Assembly: GCA_018062965.1 (NCBI GenBank)
Contig: JAGORG010000001.1
Location: 71,488 to 135,487, forward strand
Source: Minisyncoccota bacterium
GTDB lineage: Bacteria > Patescibacteriota > Minisyncoccia > Phycocordibacterales > UBA5272
DNA length: 64,000 nt
Direction: 5' to 3'
Shown: positions 682-52,072 of the stretch, piece after piece
How the letters are laid out: each line of letters opens with the position of its first letter
Numbering within the stretch: position 1 is the first letter of the stretch
Notes under the pieces: generated by a model
Database searches by the model: none
The model's input: only the letters and a program-made list of their open reading frames with translations
What the model was told of the DNA's origin: nothing
Program-made: the position numbers and the translations under genes

Positions 682-1608
682 TTATTTAAGAGTATACCCC
701 ACAGTAAAGACATACCCAGGTTCTTGTGAAGAAAATACGACACCTTGAACGTCAAAATACCCCGCAAGGTTATCATAGATGCGAAGTGTTTGAACCGTTG
801 TGTCTGGATATGAACCAACAGAAATACTTGCGCGAAGTGGATCAGATGCTGCTTTGGATAAGTTTGATACGAGATCTCTGTATTCTGCGACGCGATTAAC
901 AGCGCTTAGGTGGTATGTTGCTGCAGATAAAGGTATCGGAAGGGTGAGAAGTTTTTTTAAGCCTGCATCTATCTTTACTAACTCTTTTTCAATAAGGGTA
1001 ATATCCTCAGGGTCGTTTGTCTCTGTAAATGCTTGCATGCCAAAAGAAATATTAACAAGAGACGCTTCGTTGATAATGGTATCCAGGATAGGAGCAACAG
1101 CATTGCCGTACTTTTTCATAGCAGCTTTTGTTTCTGGTTCTGTCGTAACGATATCCTTTAGACCGTATATTGTAGGTTGCAGCTTTATCGCCTCCTCTTC
1201 TATAAGGCGGTTAATAACTTCTTGCTCAGCTTGGGCATTGTTAAGATTGTTTTTTGCTAGGTAACTTGATGTTACATAGAGGTTTTGTGAAAATGATGCT
1301 GTTAGGTTGTTTGGATCATTTAAATCTGCGATAACTTTTGGATCCGGTGTCCCCTGTGGAAGCGTTTCATCCCCTGCATTTGCGAGAACAAACTCCTTCC
1401 AGCTTATGGTTCCGTCTGTATCTGTATCAGGTATAACGTCGCGAAGAGTTGCTTCTGTAAGATTTATTTTTGTATAGCTTGGTTGAAATGGTTGTATGCC
1501 AAACCATGATGCTGGTAAAAAACCAACAAGAAGTGTTAGGCCGATAACAGAAAAAAGTATAAAGAGTTGCCTATGTTTGAAGTTTGAAGCCTGAGGTGTG
1601 GTTTCCAT
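682..1608 (-). CDS. Membrane-anchored hypothetical protein (N-terminal TM) with an EF-hand/dockerin-like DxDxDG motif
   Basis: N-terminus LFILFSVIGLTLLVGFL is a TM segment. Motif DTDTDGTISWKEF matches a Ca-binding DxDxDG loop. Co-oriented and tightly spaced with ksgA upstream. Confidence 0.6.
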   Translation of the reverse strand: METTPQASNFKHRQLFILFSVIGLTLLVGFLPASWFGIQPFQPSYTKINLTEATLRDVIPDTDTDGTISWKEFVLANAGDETLPQGTPDPKVIADLNDPNNLTASFSQNLYVTSSYLAKNNLNNAQAEQEVINRLIEEEAIKLQPTIYGLKDIVTTEPETKAAMKKYGNAVAPILDTIINEASLVNISFGMQAFTETNDPEDITLIEKELVKIDAGLKKLLTLPIPLSAATYHLSAVNRVAEYRDLVSNLSKAASDPLRASISVGSYPDTTVQTLRIYDNLAGYFDVQGVVFSSQEPGYVFTVGYTLK

Positions 1609-12967: not shown

Positions 12968-13705
12968 ATGAGTTCAGTAAAGATCACTGGTCCGTTTGTG
13001 GACATTTTGAAGCAGTTTTCACTGGAACATCGCCTTGGTCACGGGGAAGCTGGCAATAGCGAGCGTCTCGCGGTCTTGTGTAATGTGTTGGACGCTCCGC
13101 GCTCAACAGTTGAAAACTGGTTCAAAAACGACATCACACCCACCTCTGGAAATATGCGCAAAGTTGAACTAATGCTCTCTTTGTGTGGGTATGAATCAGA
13201 AGAACGAAGAAGTTTTTCCCCGATGATTCGCCTCTTTGTTGACACACTTACCACTACGGTTTCTATTGAAGAAGCCGCCCAACAGTTGGGTGGCACTTCG
13301 GAGAATATCAAGAACTGGGTTCGCGGCACAAGTCAACCCAAAAATGTGCAAGACATCATTGCTTTCAACGACTTGCATACCAGTCAACGTGTCGCCAAAG
13401 TCAAAGAGTGGCGTCGTTGTCTTGAGGATGGTGGCTTTATTGTTGCGGTATCGAAAACCGAAGAAGTAGTTTTGGTAAAAGCAACTTCGGTTCCTGGTGA
13501 GAACGAGAAAGTCGACATGCAACAAATTGATCAAGCGATTGCTCACCAAGCGAAAGCCTTGCTTTCGATGATTCGTTCCTCTGACGTTCTTGCGAACGGC
13601 GCGAGAAAAAAAACCATCCGCCAAGCTGTCGGTTACGACGACTTGGCAAAGCTTGTTGGGGATCTTCAACGGATCTCTATGGCAGACTTCAACTTTACAA
13701 ACTGA
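12968..13705 (+). CDS. Hypothetical protein with two HTH-like segments, the upstream partner of the GHKL ATPase
   Basis: Segments LAVLCNVLDAPRSTVENWFKNDITPTSGNMRKVELML and AAQQLGGTSENIKNWVRGTSQPKNVQDII resemble XRE-type HTH (my reading, not profile-verified). GC is elevated compared with flanking genes. Confidence 0.55.
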   Translation: MSSVKITGPFVDILKQFSLEHRLGHGEAGNSERLAVLCNVLDAPRSTVENWFKNDITPTSGNMRKVELMLSLCGYESEERRSFSPMIRLFVDTLTTTVSIEEAAQQLGGTSENIKNWVRGTSQPKNVQDIIAFNDLHTSQRVAKVKEWRRCLEDGGFIVAVSKTEEVVLVKATSVPGENEKVDMQQIDQAIAHQAKALLSMIRSSDVLANGARKKTIRQAVGYDDLAKLVGDLQRISMADFNFTN

Positions 13706-13716
13706 GGAGAATAGTA

Positions 13717-15375
13717 ATGAACCAAAAGCGACAACAAGTTACATCAGCTGTACTCCGTCCCCATCGTATGGGGTTGGTGTTCAAATCTGTTGCGGATACG
13801 TACCCAACCCTCCGACTCAGCATTCAGGAGCTTATTCAGAACTCTATTGACGTTGACGCCAAAAACATCGAAGTCATCATTAACGCGCAAGGCAACTTCG
13901 TGGTTGTGCATGACAACGGTTCTGGTGCAACGAAGAATGACTTCAATCAAGCACTGCAGTCTGTCCTCAAGTCAAGCAAAGACAAAGACAAGTTCGGCCG
14001 CTTTGGTCGTGGTACCATCTCCCCACTTACAAAGTGCAGGGAGTTTACCTTTATGTCACGCGGCAGGACGGGCCCCTCCCACAGATGGACGTTCCATTGC
14101 AAGGAGATTCTGGAGTCAGAAGACTTTCCTCAGATCCCTTGCGAAGACGTTGGTTCTGGGGGTGGTCAGTGGTGGCGTACGGAAGTACAGCTCAAAGGGG
14201 TCAAGTTTTCTGAAGACGCCGTAAAATACGCGGTTAACCTTGAGGAACTAAAGAATGCCGTTCTGGCAAGCTTTGCGACCCGCATGCGCAAGCTGGGAAC
14301 TGTCGTCAGAATGGCTTATCAACCCGCAAGCGGTAAAGTGCAGGAGCTAACATTTTCTGCCAAGTCCTACGGCGGTGAGAAGCTTCCTGTATGGGTGTCA
14401 GAAGACGAAACGCCCGCTGGGAAAGTCTGCATCAGTCTTTATCTGAACACGAAAGGAACTTCGCCTATACCGATTACTATCGGGCAAACGAGTGATCCTT
14501 TCCGGGTGGACTGGAAAACCTTCTACGCTTCGGTTAACTCGTTTGCAAAACAAAACAAGCGGGTGACCTTCGATACAAGCGGTAAAGAGATCAACGACCT
14601 TTTCAGGTCCGGTCTGCTTACTGGTGAAATTGAGTGTGAGAACATCACGATTCATCCTGAACGTGAGAAGTTCGAGCGCAATGAAGCACTCGACTACTTC
14701 GTGATGATCCTCGAAGAGTGGTTTCAGAAAGTTGGTAAAGATATCTACGCACAAGCGCAGATTCGAGCAAAATCAACCCTGTACCAGGAAGCGGCGCTCG
14801 AAGCAACTAGACGCATCGAAAACCACCCGCTTGTGGCTGAGTTCCTCAAGATGGTGAAGTTTGGTACTGTTGGCAAGGGACACGCTTCGGTGAACGCAAA
14901 GCCGGTCGGTGAAGTTACTTCTTCGTCGGTCAACCTTGGTCGCGATCAAGGTAAAGGCACAAGTGTTCCTGAGGAAGGTTCTACGGTCAACGGTCCGAAC
15001 GATAAGGTCACACGGCCGGGCCAAGTCCCTCTTGTGGTCGACGGACCTGAAGGTTCCAAGCGTACGATTGTGCGCGGGGAAAGCAAAGGGCTGCGTATCG
15101 CTATCGAACCTTTCCCAGGGTTTGGTGGAGTTGAAGCGCCGCTCTTTAAGATGCAGGTGGAAGCTGGGCTTGTAATCATTAACCAGCTTGCTCCTTCCTT
15201 CAACTCTTGTGCAGACCGAGGCAAAAGCCCTTTGCATCGTTACATCGACATGGTCATTGTGGCTGCCCTGCAGTCGACGGTTGCTATGGACCCCACAAGG
15301 GTTCAGAGTGATCTCGAGCAGTACATCCGCTATACCAATACCGCTTTTTTGCGGGGTGACCAGAGAGAACTGTAA
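13717..15375 (+). CDS. GHKL-superfamily ATPase, MORC/HATPase_c_3-like (Bergerat fold) with a large C-terminal region of unknown function
   Basis: N box ELIQNSIDVDAKNIEV, G1 box VVHDNGSGATKNDF and G2 box GRFGRGTIS occur in the canonical order. About 55-58% GC in sampled 60-nt windows against about 40% in nearby host genes. Confidence 0.7.
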   Translation: MNQKRQQVTSAVLRPHRMGLVFKSVADTYPTLRLSIQELIQNSIDVDAKNIEVIINAQGNFVVVHDNGSGATKNDFNQALQSVLKSSKDKDKFGRFGRGTISPLTKCREFTFMSRGRTGPSHRWTFHCKEILESEDFPQIPCEDVGSGGGQWWRTEVQLKGVKFSEDAVKYAVNLEELKNAVLASFATRMRKLGTVVRMAYQPASGKVQELTFSAKSYGGEKLPVWVSEDETPAGKVCISLYLNTKGTSPIPITIGQTSDPFRVDWKTFYASVNSFAKQNKRVTFDTSGKEINDLFRSGLLTGEIECENITIHPEREKFERNEALDYFVMILEEWFQKVGKDIYAQAQIRAKSTLYQEAALEATRRIENHPLVAEFLKMVKFGTVGKGHASVNAKPVGEVTSSSVNLGRDQGKGTSVPEEGSTVNGPNDKVTRPGQVPLVVDGPEGSKRTIVRGESKGLRIAIEPFPGFGGVEAPLFKMQVEAGLVIINQLAPSFNSCADRGKSPLHRYIDMVIVAALQSTVAMDPTRVQSDLEQYIRYTNTAFLRGDQREL

Positions 15376-15399
15376 TCGGCGCAATGCCAGTTACCAACA

Positions 15400-15430
15400 A
15401 AACGCCAGTGCAATGCTGGCGTTTTTTTTA
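15400..15430 (+). terminator. Intrinsic terminator after the GHKL ATPase gene
   Basis: cgccagtgcaatgctggcg hairpin followed by an 8-T run. Confidence 0.7.
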
Positions 15431-15479
15431 TTTTCTACCCACACAGTATTGTGCGACATTCGTAGTACACTTTATAGTA

Positions 15480-16424
15480 ATGAACAGTCTCGGCAGTTTA
15501 AAAGCAGATTTTCTCCAATATATCGAAATCGAAAAGGGTCGCAGTGCGCTCACTGTGCGAAATTATGACCACTATCTAACGCGTTTCCTTGAATTTGTAC
15601 AAGTAGAGTCCCCTGCTGATGTAACTGAAAGCATGATGCGCGAATATCGTGTTTATTTGAACCGACATCCGGCACGCGCTGCAAAAAAAGGTCAACCAGT
15701 GGAAACACTCGATAAAAAAACACAAAACTATCACTTGATTGCTCTTCGTGCGTTTCTCAAATATATTCGTAGACGAGGTGTGCAAGGATATGACCCTGAA
15801 CGCATTGAGCTTGCAAAAACAAGTGCACGAGAGCTTGATCTCATTTCTGAAAAAGAACTCACAAACCTACTAAACGCACCAGATACGAGTACAATCGTTG
15901 GTTTGCGTGACAAGGCAATACTTGAGCTCTTTTTCTCAACCGGGCTTCGTGTGTCTGAGCTGTGCTCACTTGATAGGGATACTGACTTCCACACAAGCGA
16001 AATCTCTGTTCGTGGAAAAGGTGGCAAAATCCGTGTTGTGTTTATTTCAGAAGCAGCAGCACAAGCGGTAAAAAAATATCTACAAGCCCGTGTTGATATC
16101 GATGAAGCGATGTTTGTAGACCACTCCCCTCGTGCAGCGGCTCGCATGGTAAAAGAAGAGTCTATTCGCCTAACACCGCGTTCTATTGAGCGTATGGTAG
16201 AAAAATGTGCGACGCTCGCTGGTATTTCTAAAAAATGCACTCCGCATGTGATACGACACTCGTTTGCGACAGATCTTTTGTACAATGGTGCAGACTTGCG
16301 TACGGTGCAGATGATGCTTGGGCATGCGTCCATTGCAACGACTCAGATTTATACGAATGTGACCAACAAGTTTTTGCGCGACCAATTTGAAAAATTTCAC
16401 TCAAAGCGAGGTGCAAAGGAGTAA
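15480..16424 (+). CDS. xerD: Tyrosine site-specific recombinase (XerC/XerD-like integrase family)
   Basis: C-terminal catalytic signature HVIRHSFATDLLYNGADLRTVQMMLGHASIATTQIYTNV (R..H..R..Y). N-terminal core-binding-like region. Start placed at MNSLGSLKADF (in frame with the 15384 ORF). Confidence 0.82.
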   Translation: MNSLGSLKADFLQYIEIEKGRSALTVRNYDHYLTRFLEFVQVESPADVTESMMREYRVYLNRHPARAAKKGQPVETLDKKTQNYHLIALRAFLKYIRRRGVQGYDPERIELAKTSARELDLISEKELTNLLNAPDTSTIVGLRDKAILELFFSTGLRVSELCSLDRDTDFHTSEISVRGKGGKIRVVFISEAAAQAVKKYLQARVDIDEAMFVDHSPRAAARMVKEESIRLTPRSIERMVEKCATLAGISKKCTPHVIRHSFATDLLYNGADLRTVQMMLGHASIATTQIYTNVTNKFLRDQFEKFHSKRGAKE

Positions 16425-16536
16425 GTTGCTGATTTTTCTTGTGGTGATAGTATACGATTACGCCCGCTTTCTTTTCCGTGCTACAAGGTATAGTAGAAGG
16501 CTATGCAGTACAAACGTTTTTATGCGGAACTGTTAA

Positions 16537-16953
16537 GTGTGGCGTCCATATACACAAAGGAGATTATCTATGGATACTTCATGGTCTCACACCGTGGAAC
16601 AAATGGATGCTCTCCGTGACATTGGTCTGAAGCATCTTGATATCGTTAAAGTGTGGTCGATGTTGCCGGGGTTTGAAGAGCGGTTTGCTCTCCGGGGTAA
16701 AACTCGTCTCATGGCATTGTGTCGATTCCACAATGAAAAGACACCATCACTTCGTATTTGGCCAAAGAGTCGACGCTTTATGTGTCATGGGTGCCAGGAG
16801 ACGGGCGATGCGCTTTATCTGCTTAAAGTTTTTGAGAAATGTTGCATTGATTCAGAAGAGCTGAGACATCTTTCTCCTCTACGTCGCCAAGAAGAAGTCA
16901 TGTTCTTTAAAAATACACTTGAGAAATATCTCAGGCGTCGCATTTTTCTCTAA
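16537..16953 (+). CDS. Stand-alone CHC2 zinc-finger protein (DnaG primase N-terminal zinc-binding domain-like). Start may be the downstream Met at 16570.
   Basis: ALCRFHNEKTPSLRIWPKSRRFMCHGCQETGDALYLL matches the CPFH-EKTPSF...C-GCG zinc-finger pattern of primase N-termini. Confidence 0.6.
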   Translation: MWRPYTQRRLSMDTSWSHTVEQMDALRDIGLKHLDIVKVWSMLPGFEERFALRGKTRLMALCRFHNEKTPSLRIWPKSRRFMCHGCQETGDALYLLKVFEKCCIDSEELRHLSPLRRQEEVMFFKNTLEKYLRRRIFL

Positions 16954-16976
16954 AAGCCCATACGGGCTTTTTTTTA
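16953..16976 (+). terminator. Intrinsic terminator
   Basis: aagcccatacgggctt hairpin plus a T-run. Confidence 0.65.
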
Positions 16977-17024
16977 TTTGAAACAGATTGAAGTAGTATT
17001 GACACATGTAACATATGTATGTAG

Positions 17025-17040
17025 TGTACTAGCTAGTACA
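17025..17040. promoter_or_regulatory. Perfect 16-bp palindrome TGTACTAGCTAGTACA overlapping the putative -10 of the 17067 gene (operator-like)
   Basis: TTGACA at 16999-17004, 17-nt spacer, TAGTGT, then the palindrome. The ACTAGGA motif is shared with the 12890-12905 region. Confidence 0.45.
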
Positions 17041-17066
17041 AGTTCTTATTTACTAGGAGTTTTTCC

Positions 17067-17468
17067 ATGAACATGACCGCCACCCCCACTGAAGACGAAC
17101 TTACTCTTGTTGCAGCAAAGTTTTTCAACATGGTCACGCTGCTATTCCTTTTGGGTAAAACACCAGAAGAAATCAAGGAAATGTGTGAACACTACTTTGA
17201 TCTTGTTATGAAGCATGCTGACACAGCAAAAGTGCATGTGTTTGTTGATGAAGCAGGGCGTCAACTTAAAGAAGTGTACGTCTCTTTCTCAGATGAACAG
17301 ATGAATGCGGTCAAGGAGTCGCTTGAGTCGTTTAGCCAAAGGCACCCAAACATTCTCGCGCAAGGTGACGCCTTTTTAACAACGAGCTTTGCTCAGTTTA
17401 ACGAGGCCTATCAGTCGTCTTCAGTGCTTATTCAGTGGGTTGATCTACCAGACTTTTCTGGAATCTGA
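17067..17468 (+). CDS. Hypothetical protein
   Basis: 133-aa ORF with the promoter/operator above and an SD-like aggag before the ATG. Confidence 0.5.
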   Translation: MNMTATPTEDELTLVAAKFFNMVTLLFLLGKTPEEIKEMCEHYFDLVMKHADTAKVHVFVDEAGRQLKEVYVSFSDEQMNAVKESLESFSQRHPNILAQGDAFLTTSFAQFNEAYQSSSVLIQWVDLPDFSGI

Positions 17469-24993: not shown

Positions 24994-26094
24994 ATGAAAA
25001 TTAAACTAACAAAACTTCCAAAATCAGAAGTACAGCTCGATGTTGTGCTCGACGAAAAGGAATTTGCCGCATATCACGACAAGGGATTCAAACATGTTCA
25101 AGGAATGGTAGAGATTGATGGTTTCCGCAAAGGAAATGCACCAGAAAATATTATTGTCCAAAAGTACGGAGAAATGACTATCCTAGAAGAGATGGCAAAC
25201 TATGCATTGCGAGACGCATATGTTGAAGCTGTTAAAGAACACAAGCTCATCCCTGTTGCTGATCCAAAAGTAACTATCAACAAAATCGCAAAAGATAATC
25301 CACTTGAACTTACAATGATTGTTCCTGTTCTTCCTGAAGTTACGCTTCCAAAATACAAAAAGCTCGCTGAAGAAAAAGCAAAGGAACATGTCGTAGAAGA
25401 TGTGAGCGACAAAGATATCGATGATGTTATCGAAGAGCTTCGCAAGGGTCGCGTACACCAGCATGACCACGATCACAATCATGAAGGTCACGATCATCAC
25501 GATCACGAAGGGCACGATCATAGCCATGACCACGAGCATGCTCCTGTTGAAGGTGAAAAGAAAGATGTTCCCCTTCCAGAAGTTAACGATGCATTTGCGC
25601 AATCATTTGGTCCTGAATTTAATTCAGTAACTGACCTCAAAAAGAAGATTGGAGAGAATCTTAAACTTGAAAAAGAGCAAAAGACTCGTGAAAAGCGTCG
25701 TACAGCAATTGTTGATGCGCTCATCGCAGAAACAAAAGCTGATCTTCCTGATGCAATGATTGAACAAGAGCTTGATCGTATGTTTGCACAATTCAAGCAT
25801 GACATCACTCGCTTTGGTGGCACATTTGAAGACTATATGAAGCATGCAGGTAAAACTGAAGAAGAAATCCGCGCTACATGGAAAGATGATGCGGTAAAGC
25901 GTTCAATGAGTCAGCTTGTGCTTGCTGAAATCGCTCGTGCAGAAAAGATTGTCCCAACTGATGAAGAAATCGAAACAGAACTCGTTCGTCTCTTGGCTAC
26001 AGTTCAAGACGCTGATGAAGAACGCGCTCGTGCATATCTCTATCAAGCACTTTCAAACGAAAAGGTGCTTGCGTTTTTGGAGGAGAGTAAATAA
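24994..26094 (+). CDS. tig: Trigger factor (truncated/atypical, with His-rich insertion)
   Basis: N-terminal ribosome-binding domain ...DGFRKGNAPENII. Insertion HQHDHDHNHEGHDHHDHEGHDHSHDHEH at about 25440-25545. Confidence 0.8.
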   Translation: MKIKLTKLPKSEVQLDVVLDEKEFAAYHDKGFKHVQGMVEIDGFRKGNAPENIIVQKYGEMTILEEMANYALRDAYVEAVKEHKLIPVADPKVTINKIAKDNPLELTMIVPVLPEVTLPKYKKLAEEKAKEHVVEDVSDKDIDDVIEELRKGRVHQHDHDHNHEGHDHHDHEGHDHSHDHEHAPVEGEKKDVPLPEVNDAFAQSFGPEFNSVTDLKKKIGENLKLEKEQKTREKRRTAIVDALIAETKADLPDAMIEQELDRMFAQFKHDITRFGGTFEDYMKHAGKTEEEIRATWKDDAVKRSMSQLVLAEIARAEKIVPTDEEIETELVRLLATVQDADEERARAYLYQALSNEKVLAFLEESK

Positions 26095-26193: not shown

Positions 26194-26242
26194 ATGAAAA
26201 TAAAAAACCGCACAGTGAGGTGCGATTTTGTCGCTGTGAAGC

Positions 26243-26446
26243 TCACAGTCTGTTTGGGCTCATTTGGCCAGCACGGTACAGAAAGTACCCGTGCACAAGG
26301 ATTAGTATTCCGTAGAACGCCAATCCTGCGACCAGTGTTAACTGGTCGAAGCCCTCAGACTGAATGAAGGGCGGATAATACTGCAGGCCGTATCCAAGAA
26401 ATACGAGTACTGCGAGGCAGTACGCCGCAAGTGCAATTCTGAGCAT
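26243..26446 (-). CDS. Small 2-TM membrane peptide (67 aa), copy 1 of a duplicated gene
   Basis: SD aggagaa then ATG. Two hydrophobic helices. About 90% nt identity with 42894..43097. Confidence 0.65.
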   Translation of the reverse strand: MLRIALAAYCLAVLVFLGYGLQYYPPFIQSEGFDQLTLVAGLAFYGILILVHGYFLYRAGQMSPNRL

Positions 26447-26462
26447 GATGTTCTCCTCTGTG

Positions 26463-26518
26463 TTGTGAATGAACTGAATCTTTACAAATCCTCAAATGAA
26501 TTTGAGAACTTGATAAAG
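26463..26518. repeat. Repeat module R1 (GTTGTGAATGAAC...palindrome...TTGATAAAG) directly 5' of the 26446 gene start, followed by hairpin ggacaag-N9-cttgtcc
   Basis: One of 7 related copies. Internal inverted repeat TCCTCAAAT/TTTGAGAAC. Confidence 0.7.
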
Positions 26519-26733
26519 AGGACAAGGTAAGGAATCTTGTCCATGATGGAGGTTTCACAAACTTGCTGGCTGCAAGCTGTACAGAAACCCTTTCCCTAAG
26601 AAGATTGCCAATCATCTTCTCACCCATCTTTTCACATGCAGTAAAATGCCCTGCTTATGGTGCTCTTTCTAGCTTGGCCTTGTGCTGACCTGTCCTCGTA
26701 AGGACACCAAAATGAAGATTCTCTATGCACGAT

Positions 26734-26794
26734 TTGTGAATGAACTATTTCTCTACAAGTTCTCAAATGTTTTTTACTTGAGAACTTGATAAAG
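26734..26794. repeat. Repeat module R2 (5'-degenerate) with perfect palindrome AAGTTCTCAA-N11-TTGAGAACTT; followed by hairpin ggagaatgt...acattctcc
   Basis: No intact gene immediately downstream on the minus strand; possibly an orphan copy. Confidence 0.65.
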
Positions 26795-27042
26795 AGGAGA
26801 ATGTTCTGATCACGTGACCAGCTAACCACATTCTCCATTGCATCAATCACGCTTGAGCCGGCGGGTAGTTTCTGCGTATCTACCAGGTATGAGCAGTTGA
26901 GAGCATCTTTAGTCTTTCATGCATACTCTCTCGCAGTAGTTCTTCTTTGCCATTACAGCATCGAAGTAACTGTGCGTGGCGTTATTCGCCCTCCCCATTT
27001 ATTTATTCCACGCTGTCAGACTGGGGTTCAGCGTGTGCCAGT

Positions 27043-27393
27043 TCATGGTTTCGGGAACTTGCTTGGGTAGTTGGTGCAGCCAGTGTATCGTCCGCTTCCT
27101 TCCACCGTTCTCCATTTTCCGTTGACCAGGGTTTCCACTGTCCACCAATAGGACATGGGCCCCCATCCCATTTTTTTGTTGAATGAGAACATGAACAGCT
27201 TCCGTCCATCCGGTTCGACCTTGATGTCGTAGACACCTTTGAAGGAGTATTGGAGTCTGGGGTCGTCCTGATGAATGGTGAGATACGGGCGATCAAAACC
27301 ATATTCCATCTCTTTGTCTCCCAATGCCTCGATCTCCTCCCTGAAGTCGACCGGATTGAAACCCATTTCTACCAGCTTATTCGTGAGCGTCAT
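27043..27393 (-). CDS. Hypothetical protein (116 aa), GC-rich, divergent from TrmB-like regulator 1
   Basis: About 50% GC. No recognised motif. Confidence 0.5.
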   Translation of the reverse strand: MTLTNKLVEMGFNPVDFREEIEALGDKEMEYGFDRPYLTIHQDDPRLQYSFKGVYDIKVEPDGRKLFMFSFNKKMGWGPMSYWWTVETLVNGKWRTVEGSGRYTGCTNYPSKFPKP

Positions 27394-27607
27394 CTCTATC
27401 TCCTCAATGTGCTTTCGAATCGCCTTTGGCTTGTGCCAGTAGTGTGCTTCGAATCTGGTACCAGAATATCACGACTATACTTGACAGTAAAAAGTTAGAT
27501 TGTATTAAATTATATTTGTCGTAATAGTTATATATTTAAAGGACATTATTGTGCTCCAATATGTCGGGAAAACTTTACAAAATGTATGAAATGTGTATAC
27601 TTGAGGT

Positions 27608-28411
27608 ATGGAACTACGTAAAAACCTTTCAATTTTAGATCTTTCACGTAAGGAAGAAAAAGTGCTTTTGGCTATTATCGAAGGCTGTAGAACCCCTCTT
27701 TCTATATCAAACGAGACTAAAGTGACTCGTCCAGCTGTGTACGACATACTTCTTAAGCTAAAAAAGCGTGGATTGGTGCAGTCTAAAATAAAGGAAGGTA
27801 AAAAATCGTGGCATATCGTAGACCAACGTGAGCTTGCATCTTCTTTGTATGAAACAAAGAAAGTCTTACTCGGATTAAGTGATGGACGAGAAGAAGTGGT
27901 TGGGGTGGATGACAGCCTTATTGTGCTTCATAAAGGAAAGGAAGCGGTGAACAAAATACTTCATGAGATATTTCAATCTCGCCATCATGAACGATTCTTA
28001 GGCTTAACCGGCACCTCTCCTATTTCGGACTGGATGACCGTTATGAATGTAGACGGCATAGGCATAATCAATAGAACTATAAAGAAAAACAGTCTCATTA
28101 CCGAACTCGTTGCACCCGAGAAGTGGGTAGAAGAGCACTTTAAGGCTATGGGAAAAGAGTGGGCGGCTGACTACGAAGGTCGAACAGCATCCACTGTATA
28201 CATTGAGAAAAAATATTTTGATCACGGGGCACAGATGTTTGGTTTTAAAGACGCTTTATATCTCCTGGCGCTCGGTGATCAGCTCATTATAGAAATCCGT
28301 CACAGCGCTATTCAGAAAATGATACTTTCTATGTATGCGTTTATGAAAGATCACGGAGAGAAGATTGATGCAAATAGACTGTTACGTGAATTGATGGAAA
28401 AAGAATCTTAA
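27608..28411 (+). CDS. TrmB-family-like HTH transcriptional regulator (paralog 1)
   Basis: N-terminal pattern L..EEKVLLAIIEG..TPLSISNETKVTRPAVYDILLKLKKRGLV resembles the TrmB winged HTH. 267 aa, like the other two paralogs. Confidence 0.6.
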   Translation: MELRKNLSILDLSRKEEKVLLAIIEGCRTPLSISNETKVTRPAVYDILLKLKKRGLVQSKIKEGKKSWHIVDQRELASSLYETKKVLLGLSDGREEVVGVDDSLIVLHKGKEAVNKILHEIFQSRHHERFLGLTGTSPISDWMTVMNVDGIGIINRTIKKNSLITELVAPEKWVEEHFKAMGKEWAADYEGRTASTVYIEKKYFDHGAQMFGFKDALYLLALGDQLIIEIRHSAIQKMILSMYAFMKDHGEKIDANRLLRELMEKES

Positions 28412-40305: not shown

Positions 40306-40372
40306 GTTTTAAATAAAAAGAAACTGCACGTTGATGTGCAGTTCGGCCGAACTGGTTTCAGGAGTAGTGATT

Positions 40373-40651
40373 TCACCAAACCCACACACTAGTCTCACAC
40401 TCTAAACATGGCTCACTAAGAGTTCCGTTTACAGCCGGTTCAGCAGAAACCTTCCACCGCTCACCTTGCTTTTTCATGAGTTCAAAGTCTTCAGAGTTGA
40501 TAACTCCCTTGAGAATCAGTGCCCTCTCTACTCGGTCACGAGAGAAGATGGCAAAATCTCGCTGGTTTCGAACATAGAGATCTGCCATCTCATGAGTAGA
40601 CTCTCCTGTGAAAACATCAATCACGAAATAATTTATCATCTTCGTTTTCAT
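40373..40651 (-). CDS. Hypothetical small protein (92 aa), last gene of the module-2 array
   Basis: Preceded by repeat module R3 plus an SD. C-terminal CLECETS. Confidence 0.4.
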   Translation of the reverse strand: MKTKMINYFVIDVFTGESTHEMADLYVRNQRDFAIFSRDRVERALILKGVINSEDFELMKKQGERWKVSAEPAVNGTLSEPCLECETSVWVW

Positions 40652-40667
40652 TTTCTCTACTCTCCGG

Positions 40668-40735
40668 GTTGTGAATGAACTAAACTTTAAAGATTTACGA
40701 TATCATAATCATAAACCTTATAAAGTGGGCGATGT
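40668..40735. repeat. Repeat module R3 (variant spacer), followed by hairpin gggcgatgtgtttcaatcgccc
   Basis: Shares the 5' GTTGTGAATGAAC and 3' CTTATAAAG ends. The hairpin is near-identical to the one after R7. Confidence 0.65.
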
Positions 40736-40755
40736 GTTTCAATCGCCCGATCCCA

Positions 40756-41025
40756 TTAACGGGAAAGTTTGCCGCAGGCCACGCCTGCCTCGAAGAGCTT
40801 TTGGAGAAGTGCTTCGAGTGGAACCTTTCCGGTCTTGCTGGCTTCGATTGCAAGAGTGCCGATAGCCGCCAAGGCCTGGATACCAGAGTCCTTGCTTGCA
40901 AGTGGTATAAAGGCGACAACTTTTTCATCACCTTCCTTGCAGTCCCTCTCCACGTCTCTACGGCTGCCGTAATCAAAGTTGAGAGCGTGCGAGCCATCCT
41001 TCGATTGTGTTACTTGTATGTGCAC
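40756..41025 (-). CDS. Hypothetical small protein (89 aa, GTG start), GC-rich (about 55%)
   Basis: Preceded by R4 with aagggaa-N7-GTG. Overlapping alternative ORFs on both strands make the frame choice uncertain. Confidence 0.4.
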   Translation of the reverse strand: MHIQVTQSKDGSHALNFDYGSRRDVERDCKEGDEKVVAFIPLASKDSGIQALAAIGTLAIEASKTGKVPLEALLQKLFEAGVACGKLSR

Positions 41026-41041
41026 GGATATTTCCCTTCAA

Positions 41042-41098
41042 GTTGTGAATGAACTGAATCTTTACAAATCCTCAAACGAATTTGAGAACTTGATAAAG
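41042..41098. repeat. Repeat module R4, followed by hairpin gctgaagagtaacgtccttcagc
   Basis: Near-identical to R1 over 57 nt. Confidence 0.7.
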
Positions 41099-41290
41099 TG
41101 CTGAAGAGTAACGTCCTTCAGCATGACGGCGATTTCCTGACTAGGATCACGTTCCCCGAGCCTATTTTGGGATTACTGCAAAATATCAGTAGTTGTCCCA
41201 GCCACCACGCTCGAAACCGTATTCCTCAAGGAGTTTTATTGTCCTCTTGTTTCCGGTCATCAACTTTCGGTCGATCGGTGGCTCATGTTC

Positions 41291-41332
41291 TTTGAAGGTT
41301 CTCAAATATTGCTACTTAAGAACCTTATAAAG
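41291..41332. repeat. Repeat module R5 (3' half only), followed by hairpin gctgaagagtgacgtccttcagc
   Basis: Contains the palindrome half-sites GTTCTCAAAT...CTTAAGAAC and CTTATAAAG. The hairpin is near-identical to the one after R4. Confidence 0.55.
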
Positions 41333-41395
41333 TGCTGAAGAGTGACGTCCTTCAGCGTGACGGTGATTATTGAGAGGGATCACATTCCCCCAAGC

Positions 41396-41827
41396 CTACT
41401 TCGCAACCACCGCGAAATGCCAGAAGGCACCCCAGTCACCGCCCCAGCCCCAGAAGCCCATTTCCCGTTCTCCGTCAGCGTAGCTCCACAGTGCGGGGAC
41501 GCTGCCGTAGGAACGGCAGACTGGGTCTGGTGCAACGATGTGGCACTTCCTCTGCACCTCGGGGTAATTCACTCCAAAGAGCAGAAGTTCCGGGAGTGTC
41601 GCGCAACGCAGACCCTGGCGCGCGAGCTCCCCCACCACATTTTCGGAGCGGATGAGGTGTCCGAATTGATGTAGATAGGGCATTGCCACCTCACCACTAC
41701 CTTCGATCGAGTGGTTCCTTTCGGCAAACAGCTTGAGTATTATGTCTGCGTTGTTATACTTTCCAGCGAGGATCATCTCTTTCGCAGACATGTTGTAGTT
41801 GAACTGAATCATTTGAGCTTGTTCCAT
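41396..41827 (-). CDS. Hypothetical protein (143 aa), GC-rich (about 58%), paralog of 43583..44014, divergent from TrmB-like regulator 2
   Basis: Shares MEQAQ.I.F.YNM..KEMI...ATLPELLLF with the paralog. Otherwise unrecognised. Confidence 0.6.
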   Translation of the reverse strand: MEQAQMIQFNYNMSAKEMILAGKYNNADIILKLFAERNHSIEGSGEVAMPYLHQFGHLIRSENVVGELARQGLRCATLPELLLFGVNYPEVQRKCHIVAPDPVCRSYGSVPALWSYADGEREMGFWGWGGDWGAFWHFAVVAK

Positions 41828-41982
41828 TTTGAATCTCCAATCAATGTGCTTAGTTCAGAACACCTGAACTTTCTGATAACATTATGCCATTTTAAAACAC
41901 ATCTGTCAATATAAAGATGACAGTATTATATTACAAAAAGTATTGCAAATTATGAGTAATATGATATAGTGTAATATATATT
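41828..41982. promoter_or_regulatory. Divergent promoter region with two palindromes (AGTTCAGAACACCTGAACT and CTGTCA-N9-TGACAG)
   Basis: Inverted repeats at 41851-41869 and 41902-41922, between divergent start codons. Confidence 0.4.
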
Positions 41983-42786
41983 ATGACAGTTAAAAATGAA
42001 GCGTTGCTTACAAATGAGGAAAATAGCTTAGAAAATGCTCGAAAGATGCTTCTTTCATTTGGTCTTTCAGACAGTGAATCCAAGGTTTATATCTATTTAT
42101 TAGAGCGCGGAGGGGAAATCGGAGGGTCAAAGATAGCAATTGGGGCGAAGCTGCATAGACAATATGTGTATTTGGCGCTTCCGCATCTGATGCAGTTGGG
42201 ACTAGTTGAGGAAATTCCTCATGGAAAGCTCAGTAAATACAAAGCAAATGCTCCGACTGAGATAGAAAAGATTGCAAAGAAGCGAGTTGTTGAAGCAGAA
42301 GATCTCGTAAAGGAGTTACAGAAGTTTTCAAAAGTAGGACATGAGCAAGACTTTGAAGTCTATGTTGGGGACACGGCAATACAGAAATACGAGGTTAATT
42401 GGGTAAAAGGTGTCAAGGATCACGAAGAGCAGTATATTATCGGAGGAAATACGAAAGGCTTTACCGAAATGATGGGGGATGCACTTGATGAGTATTTGGT
42501 AACTGAGTCTAGAAAGAAAATAACAACGTATTATCTGGGACACACAAGCGAACGGGGATTGTGGTCAGATACGCTTCTGGCGCAGAATGATTTGCGTGCT
42601 AAGTTTTTAGATACTTTACCACTTGGCGTGTCCCACTTTGTTGTACGAAAAGGGCATGTTGCATTCTTTACGTTTCTTAAGCCATCACTTTTGTATGTGA
42701 TCAAATCCGAAGCAGTATCAGAAAACTACAAGCAATTCTTCATGATGTTGTGGGAGATGGCGAGCGACTCGGTCGCGAAGATGTGA
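41983..42786 (+). CDS. TrmB-family-like HTH transcriptional regulator (paralog 2)
   Basis: LLSFGLSDSESKVYIYLLERGGEIGGSKIAIGAKLHRQYVYLALPHLMQLGLVEEI is TrmB-type wHTH. C-terminus FFMMLWEMA is shared with paralog 3. Confidence 0.65.
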   Translation: MTVKNEALLTNEENSLENARKMLLSFGLSDSESKVYIYLLERGGEIGGSKIAIGAKLHRQYVYLALPHLMQLGLVEEIPHGKLSKYKANAPTEIEKIAKKRVVEAEDLVKELQKFSKVGHEQDFEVYVGDTAIQKYEVNWVKGVKDHEEQYIIGGNTKGFTEMMGDALDEYLVTESRKKITTYYLGHTSERGLWSDTLLAQNDLRAKFLDTLPLGVSHFVVRKGHVAFFTFLKPSLLYVIKSEAVSENYKQFFMMLWEMASDSVAKM

Positions 42787-42893
42787 ATCAGCAGATTCAT
42801 GGCTTGGCCGCAAGGAGACAGTAGTCCTAGGACGCAAGGGGATTAATTTAAAAAGAAAACCGCACATTGCTGTGTGGTTTTTTGCTGTGAAGC

Positions 42894-43097
42894 TCACAGT
42901 CTGTTTGGGCTCATTTGACCCGCACGGTACAGAAAGTACCCGTGCACAAGGATTAGTATTCCGTAGAACGCCAATCCTGCGACCAGTGTCAGATGGTCGA
43001 AGCCCTCAGAGTGAATGAAGGGCGGATAATACTGCAAGCCGTATCCAAGAAATACGAGTACGGCGATGCTGTAGAGTGCGAGCAGAATGCGAGACAT
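42894..43097 (-). CDS. Small 2-TM membrane peptide (67 aa), copy 2
   Basis: Start reassigned to MSRILL with SD ggaggaatacc-ATG. About 90% nt identity to 26243..26446 including the 3' flank. Confidence 0.65.
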   Translation of the reverse strand: MSRILLALYSIAVLVFLGYGLQYYPPFIHSEGFDHLTLVAGLAFYGILILVHGYFLYRAGQMSPNRL

Positions 43098-43113
43098 GGT
43101 ATTCCTCCGGTAG

Positions 43114-43172
43114 TTGTGAATGAACAATCTCTACAAATCCTCAAATATTTCTAGTTGAGAACTTGATAAAGA
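43114..43172. repeat. Repeat module R6, followed by hairpin cctcgacatgtgtcgagg
   Basis: GTTGTGAATGAAC...TTGATAAAG. Directly 5' of the SD of the 43097 gene. Confidence 0.7.
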
Positions 43173-43456
43173 CCTCGACATGTGTCGAGGGTGCTTGTCA
43201 TTGAACCCGAGGATCTACCGTTTAGGTTGATCGACGAGGTCTAACATTGCCTATCAAGCGGCAACGCTTGCAACCATTCAGTCACAAGAAGTGTTACATG
43301 CTCTGATTCTTCAGTTCAGATTTTCAGCACGTTTTGAGTACTTTCTTACTCGAATACATGTACCGTTAAGTTCCCATTCGTTCGGAGTTTCATTGTCCGG
43401 GGTTGTTAACTGCGACCGGTAGAGCCGACCATCTTTTGCAAGTGGATTTCTTTTTC

Positions 43457-43512
43457 GTTAGTGAACAATCTCTACAAGTTCTCAAATATTTCTACTTGAG
43501 AACTTGATAAAG
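43457..43512. repeat. Repeat module R7 (5' end degenerate), perfect palindrome CAAGTTCTCAA-N11-TTGAGAACTTG, followed by hairpin ggcgatatgtttcaatcgcc
   Basis: No intact ORF immediately downstream on the minus strand. Confidence 0.65.
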
Positions 43513-43582
43513 TAGGCGATATGTTTCAATCGCCCGGTTGAGTCCGACTTATATTCCGCGTGGACTAGAGTGCGGGTGTTGT

Positions 43583-44014
43583 TCATTTCTGAACAACGGC
43601 TAAGAACTCATCCTGTCTTAAGGAACAGTCCCCTGTGAGGACCCTCTCCTTGCCCCCACAAACTTTCCACAAGAATCCTCCTGGATATCTCCGATGGTTC
43701 ATGGGCTCCATTGTTGCAAATCTTGACAATGTAGGATTGTGCGCCGCAAAAAGAAGGAGTTCGGGCAGTGTTGCTGAACGAAGTCCTGCTCCAGCTATTT
43801 TTCCCAAAATAGCCGCCCCTTCATCCCAGCGTGTTTCCCGGCATTGGCCATAGGATTGCAAGTGAGGCAAATCTACATCAATTTCACCCGCGCCTTGAAG
43901 GACATAGTTTAAAGCATCCCTCTCCCACGTCCTATCTATGACAAGGTTTGCCTCCCCAATCATCTCTTTAATGGTCATGTTGTAGGTGAAGATGATAGCC
44001 TGAGCTTGTTCCAT
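43583..44014 (-). CDS. Hypothetical protein (143 aa), paralog of 41396..41827, divergent from TrmB-like regulator 3
   Basis: Same length and conserved blocks as the paralog. Confidence 0.6.
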   Translation of the reverse strand: MEQAQAIIFTYNMTIKEMIGEANLVIDRTWERDALNYVLQGAGEIDVDLPHLQSYGQCRETRWDEGAAILGKIAGAGLRSATLPELLLFAAHNPTLSRFATMEPMNHRRYPGGFLWKVCGGKERVLTGDCSLRQDEFLAVVQK

Positions 44015-44181
44015 TTTGTTTCCTTAATGTACATTTAGTTCGGGAACCTTTCCTGAACTTTCTGGTAATATTGTACAACTTTGAAACACATTTGTCAATC
44101 ATAAAATTGACATTATTTTATTACATTATACATTGTAAAACAATGAAAATATGGTATACTAACAATAAATAATTTGACACT
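44015..44181. promoter_or_regulatory. Divergent promoter region with palindromes (AGTTCGGGAACCTTTCCTGAACT, TGTCAAT-N6-ATTGACA)
   Basis: Inverted repeats at 44037-44059 and 44093-44112. Parallels the 41828-41982 region. Confidence 0.4.
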
Positions 44182-44976
44182 ATGGAAATTATAAAACAGA
44201 AAAAGTCTAAAAAAGAGGTAGAAAACCTGTATGTTGAGAAACTCGCGGAACTTGGTTTTTCTAAAGCGGAGAGCCTTATTTATGTATATTTATTGGAAAA
44301 AGGGTCTGAAGCGCTAGTTTCTAAGATAGCGGTCGCTACAGGTATGCATCGTCAGCAGGTGTATCTTGTACTCCCTAAGCTCGTAGAATCTGGAGTCGTT
44401 GAAGAGGTTAAAGAAGGAAAACTCACTAGATATAAAGCTAGGCCGCCGCAGAGTCTGGAAAGGGTTGTGAGGCGTAAGGTTACTCTGGCGGAAGATGTAG
44501 CTCAGGAGCTCGAGAAGATTTCAAAACTTGGTAACGAACAGGAATTTGAAGCGGTTATTGGAGAAAAAGCATATCGAGCTTACGATATAGAGCGCGCAAA
44601 AAATATGAAAGAAGGGGATGTTCAGTACATCATAGGCTCCTCCTCTGATGAATATCTGGTAGCGATGGGGGATGCGTACGAAAAGGAGTATGTTCCAATC
44701 CTTGCCTCAAAGAATGTAAAAACTTATTATATTGCGCCGGAAAGTCAAAAGTTTAGAAAGGATTATGTCAGCGAGCGTCAGCACTTCGAAGTAAGAGTTC
44801 TTTCTAAAATGAAACAGAATTCCATTACTACCATGATTCAGGGAGATAAACTTATATTCTATTCAAACGTGAAGCCGCTCAGTATCTATATTATTACGTC
44901 TAAGAAAGTTGCAGAAAGTTATAGGGAATTCTTCATGATGCTGTGGGAGATGGCAGAAGAAGCAGAAAAGAAATAA
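44182..44976 (+). CDS. TrmB-family-like HTH transcriptional regulator (paralog 3)
   Basis: YVEKLAELGFSKAESLIYVYLLEKGSEALVSKIAVATGMHRQQVYLVLPKLVESGVVEEV. C-terminus FFMMLWEMAEE. Confidence 0.65.
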   Translation: MEIIKQKKSKKEVENLYVEKLAELGFSKAESLIYVYLLEKGSEALVSKIAVATGMHRQQVYLVLPKLVESGVVEEVKEGKLTRYKARPPQSLERVVRRKVTLAEDVAQELEKISKLGNEQEFEAVIGEKAYRAYDIERAKNMKEGDVQYIIGSSSDEYLVAMGDAYEKEYVPILASKNVKTYYIAPESQKFRKDYVSERQHFEVRVLSKMKQNSITTMIQGDKLIFYSNVKPLSIYIITSKKVAESYREFFMMLWEMAEEAEKK

Positions 44977-50651: not shown

Positions 50652-50735
50652 GGGTGAATCTACTCTCAAGAATCGAAGACCAGGGCTTGCAAAAAAACGA
50701 TATATTTGGTATAGTTCCAACCACTATTTACGGAT

Positions 50736-51167
50736 ATGCCAACAATCAATCAACTCGTTAAGAAGTCTCGCGCAAAGGTGATCAAGAAATCACGTTCTAT
50801 TGCTATGGGGCGCGGATTCAACGCAATCCAAAACAAGCCTAACTTTTACAATTCACCATTTAAGCGTGGTGTGTGTACAAAGGTAACAACAACAACTCCA
50901 AAGAAGCCGAACTCTGCGCTTCGAAAGATTGCCCGTGTACGCCTTACAAACGGTATGGAAGTAACAGCATACATTCCAGGAGAACAGCACAAGCTTCAGG
51001 AACACTCAGTGGTTGTACTACGCGGTGGACGTGTGAAGGACTTGGCGGGGGTACGTTATCACATTGTTCGCGGACGATTGGATGCAACAGGAGTAGATAA
51101 GCGCCGACAGGGACGATCACTCTACGGAGCAAAGCGACCAAAAGCAGGAGCTCCTGCGAAGAAGTAA
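50736..51167 (+). CDS. rpsL: 30S ribosomal protein S12 (with a short insertion)
   Basis: [10 protein letters not shown]...[10 protein letters not shown]...GGRVKDLPGVRYH. Confidence 0.95.
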
Positions 51168-51176
51168 TCTCAAAAC

Positions 51177-51210
51177 AAAAGCGGAACCGAAAGGTTCCGC
51201 TTTTGTTTTT
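51177..51210 (+). terminator. Terminator hairpin GCGGAACCGAAAGGTTCCGC (copy 1 of 3)
   Basis: Identical stem-loop also at 51696..51729 and 52021..52055. Confidence 0.7.
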
Positions 51211-51244
51211 AAAGTCTTACAACCTTTTGATATACTTCAGTTGT

Positions 51245-51676: not shown

Positions 51677-51695
51677 TCATTCAGGTTATTACTAC

Positions 51696-51729
51696 AAAAG
51701 CGGAACCGAAAGGTTCCGCTTTTGTTTTG
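51696..51729 (+). terminator. Terminator hairpin GCGGAACCGAAAGGTTCCGC (copy 2 of 3)
   Basis: Repeat of 51177..51210. Confidence 0.65.
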
Positions 51730-51768
51730 TTGGTGATAGTATTAAAGAAACTGTACAAGGAGATCTTT

Positions 51769-52014: not shown

Positions 52015-52020
52015 CAGTTA

Positions 52021-52055: not shown

Positions 52056-52072
52056 ATAGAGTATCTACGAAC

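Follow-up and report, generated by a model that had tools for sequence, protein, structure and literature searches.

Stem-loops between the cistrons of one transcription unit, which delimit processed mRNA segments that differ in stability, are known from several systems, among them the RNase III sites in the early region of phage T7, the REP hairpins of malEFG, and the puf operon of Rhodobacter. In monoderm bacteria, for which 5' decay of the RNase J type is established, the ermC and aprE leaders carry 5'-terminal stabilizer hairpins that block RNase J. In addition, the put RNAs of phage HK022 consist of two stem-loops one nucleotide apart and modify RNA polymerase in cis. Plastids have intercistronic expression elements (PMC2230500). 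Here, we analyzed a stretch of 64,000 nucleotides (hereafter the window, numbered from its first letter) from a Minisyncoccota bacterium (GenBank assembly GCA_018062965.1, contig JAGORG010000001.1, positions 71,488 to 135,487 of the forward strand). It contains seven copies of a two-hairpin RNA module within three small operon cassettes, two of which end in a copy of pep67, a gene for a 67-residue two-helix membrane protein. The module and the architecture of the cassettes are new and undescribed, and they belong to a known kind of element, the intercistronic mRNA structure.

The module resembles the stem-loops of processed mRNAs in that conserved hairpins lie between the cistrons of one transcription unit, affecting expression and not the protein, and in that the proposed processing would leave a hairpin at the upstream 3' end and at the downstream 5' end. 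It differs from them in being composite and conserved in sequence (hairpins H1 and H2, a leader, and sometimes a further hairpin, H0), in preceding nearly every non-first cistron, and in being confined to a single type of operon, the one that diverges from a TrmB-like regulator, throughout a class of the candidate phyla radiation (CPR); the processing is hypothetical here. With the ermC and aprE leaders it shares a hairpin at the 5' end or close to it, followed by a leader without structure and by a strong Shine-Dalgarno sequence (SD), and the first cistrons of the present operons also have a 5'-proximal hairpin. The hairpin of the module is internal, however, and would become 5'-terminal only after the hypothetical cleavage. 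The put RNAs of HK022 have a similar two-hairpin geometry with a gap of 0-1 nt, a comparison that extends to geometry only. No match to the module was found in Rfam 15, where a scan of the window at gathering thresholds returned only four tRNAs, and scans of both regions at E <= 5 and of seven relatives at E <= 1 returned no such match either. We found no paper on TrmB in connection with Patescibacteria or CPR, or on a motif of this kind.

Results

The module is an RNA structure of Paceibacteria

A pattern scan of JGI metagenomes and a covariance model made from 21 copies (E < 1e-5) gave 47 distinct copies of the module from 27 sources across Paceibacteria. The order of its parts is H1, a gap of 0-1 nt, H2, a leader containing AGUUCAUUCACAAC, the SD, and the start codon. 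H1 is a GC-rich hairpin (mean 59%) that differs in sequence from copy to copy; in 46 of the 47 copies it forms a perfect stem of 7-12 bp, and 24 distinct arm sequences were observed. H2 is a long AU-rich hairpin with a conserved base, comprising CUUUAU, a stem of 10-13 bp, a variable loop, UARAG, and a bulged U. The leader is unstructured and rich in C, A, and U.

The pairing of H2 is supported by covariation. Among the 47 distinct sequences, 97.1% of the cells are paired and nine of the 16 pairs have changed on both sides (83 cells), and none of 500 shuffles reached the observed covariation score. In slid controls, 31-56% of the cells were paired, with 53-56% when the partner was slid by one column. 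A MAFFT alignment of the 21 copies gave the same picture (98.8% paired). On the sense strand, H2 contains ~94 G·U cells versus 22 other mismatches, and a G·U pair corresponds to an A·C mismatch on the other strand. The covariance model scored the module at 35-91 bits in the sense and 15-25 bits in the antisense direction, and the folding z-scores were -4.2 to -4.5 and -0.7 to -2.4, respectively. The covariation, the sense-only G·U pairs, and the folding of the sense strand led us to conclude that the module is an RNA structure in the mRNA and not a DNA operator.

A scan of GTDB genomes using a narrow alignment of the regulator as the query found homologs in Patescibacteria/Paceibacteria, including Nomurabacteria, Lloydbacteria, Adlerbacteria, and 'Pacebacteria'. 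Of the 22 GTDB Paceibacteria loci with the regulator, 15 have the module, invariably on the other strand from the regulator. The genes preceded by the module include those for a receiver-like protein and a methyltransferase, many orphans, and small peptides with two transmembrane (2-TM) helices unrelated to Pep67; in L008 (relatives are numbered L001 and so on), the module comes after pep67 and not before it. Because it precedes so many unrelated genes, we regard the module as a general intercistronic element. An earlier reading of the same DNA, made from its letters and predicted open reading frames (ORFs) and called here the sequence-only reading, had implied that the module is a feature of the pep67 gene, a view that these genes do not support.

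Two kinds of cargo deserve description. An orphan family resembling receiver domains (PF00072 below threshold in one member) is found in varied slots: L015 3335..4027, L019 2357..2902, L034 2589..3293, and L036 11..547. The unrelated small 2-TM peptides after a module stand downstream of a soluble-protein gene in L010 (3664..3852, 62 residues) and L012 (~932..1138, 68 residues). The peptide of L010 ends its operon, with the terminator next, which echoes the arrangement of pep67.

The leader appears to be selected to be open. Leaders were less stable than their shuffles (-2.25 versus -3.41 kcal/mol, n = 29), and sequestration of the SD by the conserved box of the leader was not observed, the pairing probability being 0.61 as compared with 0.60 in controls (n = 29). 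A function of the box as an anti-SD or RNA thermometer was rejected on these two grounds. A consensus scan found no sigma-70 -35/-10 pair with a spacer of 16-18 nt on the gene strand inside the modules.

First-position modules often have the extra hairpin H0 upstream. In the window it lies at 43541..43575 (43541..43566 as annotated within module M6, below), and it was also seen in L001, L003, L006, L007, L015, L016, L017, L019, and L034. The arms of H0 covary (AGUCC/GGACU, AGCCC/GGGCU, AACCCA/UGGGUU, AGCUCA/UGAGCU, and AACUCU/AGAGUU) around a conserved loop, GCGGAAUAUAAA. An invariant CCGC upstream could pair with GCGG of the loop in a candidate H-type pseudoknot, picked out by eye and with an invariant S1. 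The loops of H1 are conserved within classes (UUGAAACAC and GACGUNACU). First cistrons, which have no module, carry their own covarying 5' hairpin, AGUUCAGG..CCUGAACU, a few nucleotides after the predicted +1; it is found at 41860..41880 and 44040..44068 of the minus strand and in L007-L009, and shares AGUUCA with the module box.

Three cassettes of one design

The seven modules of the window (M1-M7) share the minus strand and are confined to three cassettes, each composed of a TrmB-like winged-helix regulator on the plus strand and a divergent operon on the minus strand. Cassette A lies beside tig, and cassette C lies between recJ and RNase H, with cassette B in tandem to C.

In cassette A, the regulator (27608..28411) matches PF01978 with 33.2 bits (the cut-off is 25.6 here and below). 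The operon begins with an ORF for an orphan 116-residue protein (27043..27393), in whose place close relatives have an unrelated 125-residue gene. It is followed by M2, an ORF-less spacer of 171 nt, M1, pep67 copy A, and a terminator. M2 (26728..26836; 72 bits) comprises H1 at 26796..26836, H2 at 26751..26794, and the box at 26733..26746. M1 (26447..26542; 78.3 bits, z = -4.46) comprises H1 at 26520..26542, H2 at 26480..26518, the box AGTTCATTCACAAC at 26462..26475, and the SD at 26453..26458. The intrinsic terminator (26199..26229, minus strand) is formed by a GCACC..GTGCGG stem (26229-26204) and the T-run TTATTTTCAT, and is conserved in relatives. No consensus promoter for the operon was found in the intergenic region of cassette A. 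A perfect 10-bp palindrome, CTGGTACCAG, at 27440..27470 between the regulator and the operon is a possible operator.

In cassette C, the regulator (44182..44976; 45.7 bits) is divergent from an operon composed of a gene for an orphan 143-residue protein (43583..44014), M6, an ORF-less spacer of 245 nt, M7, pep67 copy B, and a terminator. The only match of the 143-residue protein was its own cluster, 'hypothetical protein KBC50_00640 [Candidatus Pacebacteria bacterium]'; since the homolog search returned nothing else, the protein was dropped as a candidate lysin. M6 (43449..43566; 77.6 bits) has H0 with covarying arms, H1 at 43514..43535, and H2 at 43470..43512. M7 (43098..43190; 68.9 bits, z = -4.37) has H1 at 43173..43190, H2 at 43129..43171, the box at 43113..43126, and the SD at 43104..43108. 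The promoter, TTGACA-17-TACAAT (44098..44070, minus strand), agrees with the consensus at 11 of 12 positions, and a palindrome, TGTCAAT-N6-ATTGACA (44093..44112), overlaps its -35 element; this palindrome is conserved in L007, L008, and L009. The terminator (42851..42877, minus strand), read from the sequence as CCACACAGCAATGTGCGG followed by TTTTCTTTTT, occurs as the same hairpin with a perfect stem in L007 and L009. The longest ORF of the neighboring RNase H (GTG at 44943) overlaps the end of the regulator by 34 nt (44943..44976), and its true start is probably further downstream.

Cassette B is without pep67. Its regulator (41983..42786; 38.9 bits) is divergent from an operon (40373..41827) in the order of a 143-residue paralog of the first protein of cassette C (41396..41827; 40% identical), M4, a short spacer, M3, a putative 89-residue gene (40756..41025), M5, a 92-residue gene (40373..40651), and a terminator (40321..40344). 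M4 (41269..41356; 57.5 bits) has H1 at 41334..41356 and H2 at 41290..41332, the latter with compensatory AAGG/CCTT changes. M3 (41027..41122; 85.4 bits, z = -4.18) has H1 at 41100..41122 and H2 at 41060..41098. In M5 (40652..40748; 67.8 bits, z = -4.29), with H1 at 40727..40748 and H2 at 40685..40725, the stem of H2 is largely different yet complementary. A consensus scan found the promoter TTGACA-17-CATAAT (41909..41881, minus strand), the -35 element of which is overlapped by the palindrome CTGTCA-N9-TGACAG (41903..41923). This promoter and that of cassette C are the only strong sigma-70-type promoters on the minus strand; both lie in the divergent regions and none lies in a module.

Each of the three ORF-less spacers is located between two modules on the minus strand, at 26557..26727 (171 nt), 41141..41268 (128 nt), and 43204..43448 (245 nt). 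They are 100% conserved in same-strain contigs of other samples, with folding z-scores of only -1.4 and -1.95. We considered that the spacers after M2, M4, and M6 might be decayed copies of genes seen elsewhere, and blastn and tblastx searches matched the same strain only. Either decayed cassettes or non-coding cargo would be conceivable.

The regulators agree with the TrmB family (PF01978) in the N-terminal winged helix, which scores above the cut-off, the palindrome over the promoter, and the orientation of the gene, divergent from its target. Such an orientation is common for repressors. They differ from TrmB in the C-terminal 180 residues, which match no known TrmB sugar-binding domain, and no Pfam domain was found past the helix-turn-helix. 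The NCBIfam TrmB equivalogs gave only 18-33 bits against cut-offs of 500-650. The regulators of cassettes B and C are 38% identical, and BLAST detected no similarity between those of A and C. We infer from their sequence and position that the -35 palindromes are presumed operators of the TrmB-like proteins and that the operons would be repressed until a signal arrives. The proposal that pep67 resides in regulated cassettes is thus supported by both the regulators and the palindromes over the -35 elements.

Two copies of pep67 and their history

Copy A of pep67 (26243..26446) and copy B (42894..43097), both on the minus strand, are the last cistrons of cassettes A and C, respectively. Their presence at the coordinates given in the sequence-only reading was confirmed. 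A repeat search of the window paired 26227-26474 with 42878-43125 at 86% ungapped identity. Pairwise alignment of the two loci extended the homologous unit to 325 columns with 84.3% identity, from the 5' arm of H2 (26519 / 43172) to past the terminator (26199 / 42851). The flanks beyond 26199..26519 and 42851..43172 are ~33% identical, which is the random level. No third copy was detected in the window by tblastn.

The identity is uneven along the unit. The coding sequences are identical at 181 of 204 nt (88.7%), with 81.8% over nt 1-99 and 95.2% over nt 100-204. The corresponding values are 81.8% for the H2 hairpin, 79.5% for the 3' untranslated region with the terminator, and 66.7% for the box and SD. 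The hairpin noticed previously on the 3' side proved to be the intrinsic terminator in both copies. The repeat close to the SD is also real, but it had been called identical before both genes, which does not hold for a box and SD of 66.7% identity, and H1 is wholly different between M1 and M7.

The two peptides differ at seven of 67 residues, and the genes show 12 synonymous and 11 non-synonymous differences (dS, 0.29; dN/dS, 0.26). Among eleven distinct homologous coding sequences, dN/dS was 0.06-0.37 and dS reached 1.6. The low dN/dS indicates that pep67 is a translated gene under purifying selection. The exact protein of copy A was found in two contigs and that of copy B in 12 contigs from at least six independent samples, with the same unique flanks each time. 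In the metagenome GCA_020047435.1, the two copies are on different contigs, and the flanks are unique to each. The recurrence of the exact copies in independent assemblies excludes an assembly artifact as the source of the duplication, which had been named as the circumstance that would undermine it.

All relatives have pep67 in an operon that diverges from a TrmB-like gene. It lies beside tig in L001-L005 and L011 and beside recJ/RNase H in L007, L009, and, as judged from its RNase H and ComEC neighbors, L008. Both loci carry pep67 in relatives down to 72-79% protein identity, indicating that the tig and recJ loci of pep67 are both old. The pep67 units are 84-95% identical although the host cassettes A and C are unrelated; therefore, the unit was copied or converted between the cassettes long after these had diverged. 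The copies are also mosaic. In its 5' part, copy B shares 98% identity with the gene at the tig locus of strain L011; in its 3' part, copy A shares 98% identity with L005. The terminator loop variants CTCACT and AGCAAT swap between the loci. These segment-wise identities led us to conclude that recombination or gene conversion is ongoing, rather than that a single recent duplication took place. The sequence-only reading had offered recent duplication or gene conversion. Copying or conversion is in accord with the unrelated hosts and the mosaicism, whereas a recent duplication conflicts with the dS of 0.29 and the occupation of both loci in distant relatives. In the history that we propose, a unit of ~320 bp (the H2 hairpin, leader, pep67, and terminator) would have been copied from one operon into the other, and mutual recombination would since have held the copies alike in a concerted, mosaic manner. 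Taken alone, the duplication is a modest and ordinary finding, namely an orphan small membrane protein with two copies kept by recombination; the module and cassettes around it are of greater interest.

The Pep67 protein

AlphaFold2 prediction from a seven-sequence alignment gave two helices, residues 2-23 and 35-61 (pLDDT 76), in agreement with hydropathy. Together with the purifying selection, this confirms the two-helix membrane peptide gene recognized earlier. According to the positive-inside rule, Pep67 is probably a helical hairpin with both termini inside (R3, R58, and R66 inside; E31 and D34 in the loop). The loop is acidic and aromatic with YYPPF, and the invariant LQYYPPF marks its edge. 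The tail, YRAGQMSPNRL, is invariant, and it and H52 in helix 2 are among the most strongly conserved features. In the predicted topology, the YYPPF loop would probably be outside and the tail in the cytoplasm.

A word-indexed search of 5.8 billion clusters found relatives in five clusters at 72-88% identity, and an exhaustive profile search of 1.84 billion representatives found a single 50% cluster. No GTDB species representative encodes Pep67, and no relatives were found in viral contigs (IMG/VR). No family match was obtained in Pfam, PHROGs, or NCBIfam (E <= 0.1/0.01) or in PADLOC, and neither the sequence search of the PDB nor the Foldseek search with the AlphaFold2 model gave a useful match. 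Annotation of the proteins encoded by the cassette operons was equally unproductive. Pep67 is thus an orphan small inner-membrane protein of a narrow Paceibacteria clade within the CPR. It resembles class II holins, type I toxins, and the Pmp3/YqaE proteolipids in size (~50-95 residues), two hydrophobic helices, and short charged termini. A holin would be expected to have at least one transmembrane helix and a charged cytoplasmic C-terminus; Pep67 has two helices and a tail with only two Arg residues. It differs from them in the lack of sequence or profile similarity, of a phage or lysin context, and of an antisense RNA signal, and in its invariant tail, which is not rich in charged residues.

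Other features of the window

The trigger factor gene beside cassette A (24994..26094) has a His/Asp-rich insertion, HQHDHDHNHEGHDHHDHEGHDHSHDHEH, which is conserved with length variation in relatives. The cluster (50700..54900) of rpsL (50736..51167), rpsG (52586..53110), and fusA (54926..57070) is broken by several small orphan ORFs. They are separated by near-identical terminator-like repeats, D6 in three copies (51177, 51696, and 52022) and D10 in two copies of 98% identity (53808 and 54313). A block at 12968..17468 contains a gene for a 552-residue GHKL/MutL-like ATPase with weak matches to MzaB and the sacsin P-loop, a 245-residue orphan, and an Xer-like tyrosine recombinase (15384..16424). 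This block may be a mobile or defense island.

Discussion

The joint explanation that we consider best, with a probability of about one half, is that pep67 encodes a lineage-restricted membrane protein that was copied or converted between TrmB-controlled operons, in which the module punctuates the polycistronic mRNA. As judged from sequence, punctuation is the most likely function of the module. It is favored because the module contains no promoter, the SD is not sequestered, H1 has no terminator U-run, and the first cistron has its own 5' hairpin. These features suggest a rule by which each cistron starts with a hairpin and an open leader and each non-terminal cistron ends with a hairpin.

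One sigma-70-type promoter would drive each pep67 operon, under TrmB-like repression and with signal-dependent induction. H1 would be a 3' barrier, shielding the upstream cistron from 3' exonucleases, and H2 would be a 5' barrier, guarding the downstream cistron against decay of the RNase J type, with or without endonucleolytic cleavage at the H1/H2 junction. The open leader would load ribosomes, and the shared module would supply the homology for cassette swapping.

Several points weigh against this explanation. The gap of 0-1 nt between H1 and H2 leaves little single strand for cleavage of the RNase Y/E type. The first-position modules have H0 with its GCGGAAUAUAAA loop and conserved H1 loops, which are needless for a plain exonuclease barrier, and M2, M4, and M6 precede ORF-less spacers, not genes. 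The alignment of the 47 H2 sequences was fitted to the model, which favors pairing; the MAFFT alignment of 21 copies agrees with it. The role proposed below for Pep67 draws on negative evidence and sequence conservation. Finally, H1 is followed by CUUUAU, giving four or five U in 8 nt, and H1 of M7, one of the seven copies in the window, passed a lenient terminator scan, so that partial termination is a live alternative.

According to that alternative, H1 and CUUUAU form a leaky intrinsic terminator (an attenuator) by which expression falls along the operon, and H2 is an accessory, such as an anti-antiterminator, a pause signal, or a factor-binding site. The GC-rich H1 of 7-12 bp, always followed by N-CUUUAU, would suit this function, as would the terminator-like H1 of M7 and the spacing of the two hairpins, one nucleotide apart as in the put RNAs mentioned above. 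The real terminators in these operons, however, have runs of at least 6-9 U, whereas the U residues after H1 are broken by A and C. The conservation of H1 loops within classes is atypical of terminators. Furthermore, CUUUAU is the 5' arm of H2 itself, and thus H2 forms too late to influence termination there. We consider attenuation unlikely, though worth keeping in view.

A rival of a different kind concerns Pep67, which had been compared with holins, type I toxins, and bacteriocin immunity proteins. In this explanation, Pep67 damages membranes in the manner of a holin, a type I toxin, or a bacteriocin-release or immunity protein and is silenced by the TrmB-like repressor, and the upstream hairpins hold its expression below the level of the soluble first gene. 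Colicin operons, in which a hairpin stands ahead of the lysis gene, would be a parallel. The order of a soluble protein, a hairpin, and a small membrane protein recalls that of the ColE7 operon. This operon is named cea-cei-cel in PMC2896534. The small size of Pep67, its two helices with short basic termini, its position at the operon end, and the repressor-type palindrome are compatible with such an effector, as is the fact that other module-preceded terminal genes (the 62- and 68-residue peptides of L010 and L012) also encode unrelated small 2-TM peptides.

The searches argue against this view. The holin and toxin families in the four family databases gave no match, and the viral contigs contained no relatives. 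Besides the TrmB-like regulators, the neighbors are the housekeeping genes tig, recJ, and RNase H. The upstream partner is not constant (116, 125, or 143 residues, or, in L009, 78 residues with a second small gene), and L008 has none; a fixed partner that could be a toxin, lysin, or antitoxin is therefore lacking. In the window cassettes and in the relatives, we found no endolysin or phage context, the upstream genes being variable orphans; no bacteriocin precursor, modification, or export genes near pep67; and no muralytic neighbor. On the plus strand of the two copies and next to them, a consensus scan revealed no sigma-70-like site that could serve an antisense antitoxin. The ribosome-binding site is open, canonical, and not sequestered, and two copies are retained under purifying selection. 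The holin, type I toxin, and immunity readings are therefore not supported by family, phage context, viral relatives, neighbors, or antisense promoter, although such tests cannot exclude toxicity as such. We regard a membrane-damaging function as clearly unlikely. With low confidence, we instead propose from its conserved sequence that Pep67 may be a membrane subunit with a non-lytic, accessory or regulatory role exerted through the invariant tail. Its presence under two unrelated regulators may, with similar reserve, be taken to mean that one useful effector answers to two signals.

The presence of H0 and of the conserved loops keeps open an active role of the module, by protein binding, ribozyme activity, or polymerase modification. 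In its boldest form, H0-H1-H2 would be a new active RNA class, either a self-cleaving or nuclease-guiding punctuation or a put-like reprogramming of the polymerase, that delimits exchangeable cassettes in TrmB-controlled accessory operons of Paceibacteria. The whole would be an integrase-free, RNA-punctuated cassette system with pep67 as mobile cargo, a proposal that we put forward as speculative and quite improbable.

The arrays also resemble integron cassettes in their small orphan ORFs of the same orientation, imperfect inverted repeats with a bulged base, strand bias, single promoter at the head, and strain-variable content, and the modules might be attC-like recombination sites, with the pep67 unit as a mobile cassette inserted site-specifically into two operons. 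Exchange is indeed evident. At the same locus, very close strains have a 116-residue or a 125-residue first gene between flanks of ~95% identity, modules and spacers have been gained or lost (one module in L007, two in the window), and the same cargo genes occupy different slots in different genomes. In addition, the homology between the pep67 copies begins inside H2, and H2 combines a conserved bulged base with strand bias. However, no integron integrase (IntI) is present. The sole tyrosine recombinase of the window, that of the 12968..17468 block, is Xer-like (XerA_Arch, 226.6 with a cut-off of 220; integron-integrase TIGR02249, 115 with a cut-off of 265). The arms read GTTYYYR/YRRRAAC (GTTCTCR...YGAGAAC) and not GTTRRRY/RYYYAAC as in the R boxes of attC. 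Unlike the repeats of integrons, those described here are highly conserved in sequence and tied to the ribosome-binding site of the next gene, and both their fixed spacing from the SD and the openness of the leader point to a role in expression. Ordinary homologous recombination over the 60-90 nt of the shared module explains the shuffling, and we find site-specific insertion highly improbable.

That the H2 palindrome acts instead as DNA, as an operator or a part of an internal promoter that makes each gene its own transcription unit, is suggested by the position of a long inverted repeat directly ahead of each gene and by TTGAGA/TTGAGG in its 3' arm, which resembles a -35 hexamer, but can scarcely hold, given modules devoid of sigma-70-like -35/-10 pairs on the gene strand, a loop length varying up to ~20 nt and a spacing to the box varying by 0-3 nt, the excess of G·U cells over other mismatches, all favoring RNA of the sense strand, and antisense folding no better than that of shuffles.

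The present analysis reveals a recurrent operon design in Paceibacteria, a TrmB-like regulator and a divergent array of orphan genes, each with a conserved two-hairpin module of a kind not described in any database. Paceibacteria make up a large, uncultured part of the CPR, about whose gene regulation very little has been learned. Should the module prove to control processing, decay, or read-through, Paceibacteria would have their first defined cis-acting mRNA element. The module would then also be a ready marker for accessory, strain-variable genes, and the tuning and shuffling of such genes in reduced genomes would become directly testable.

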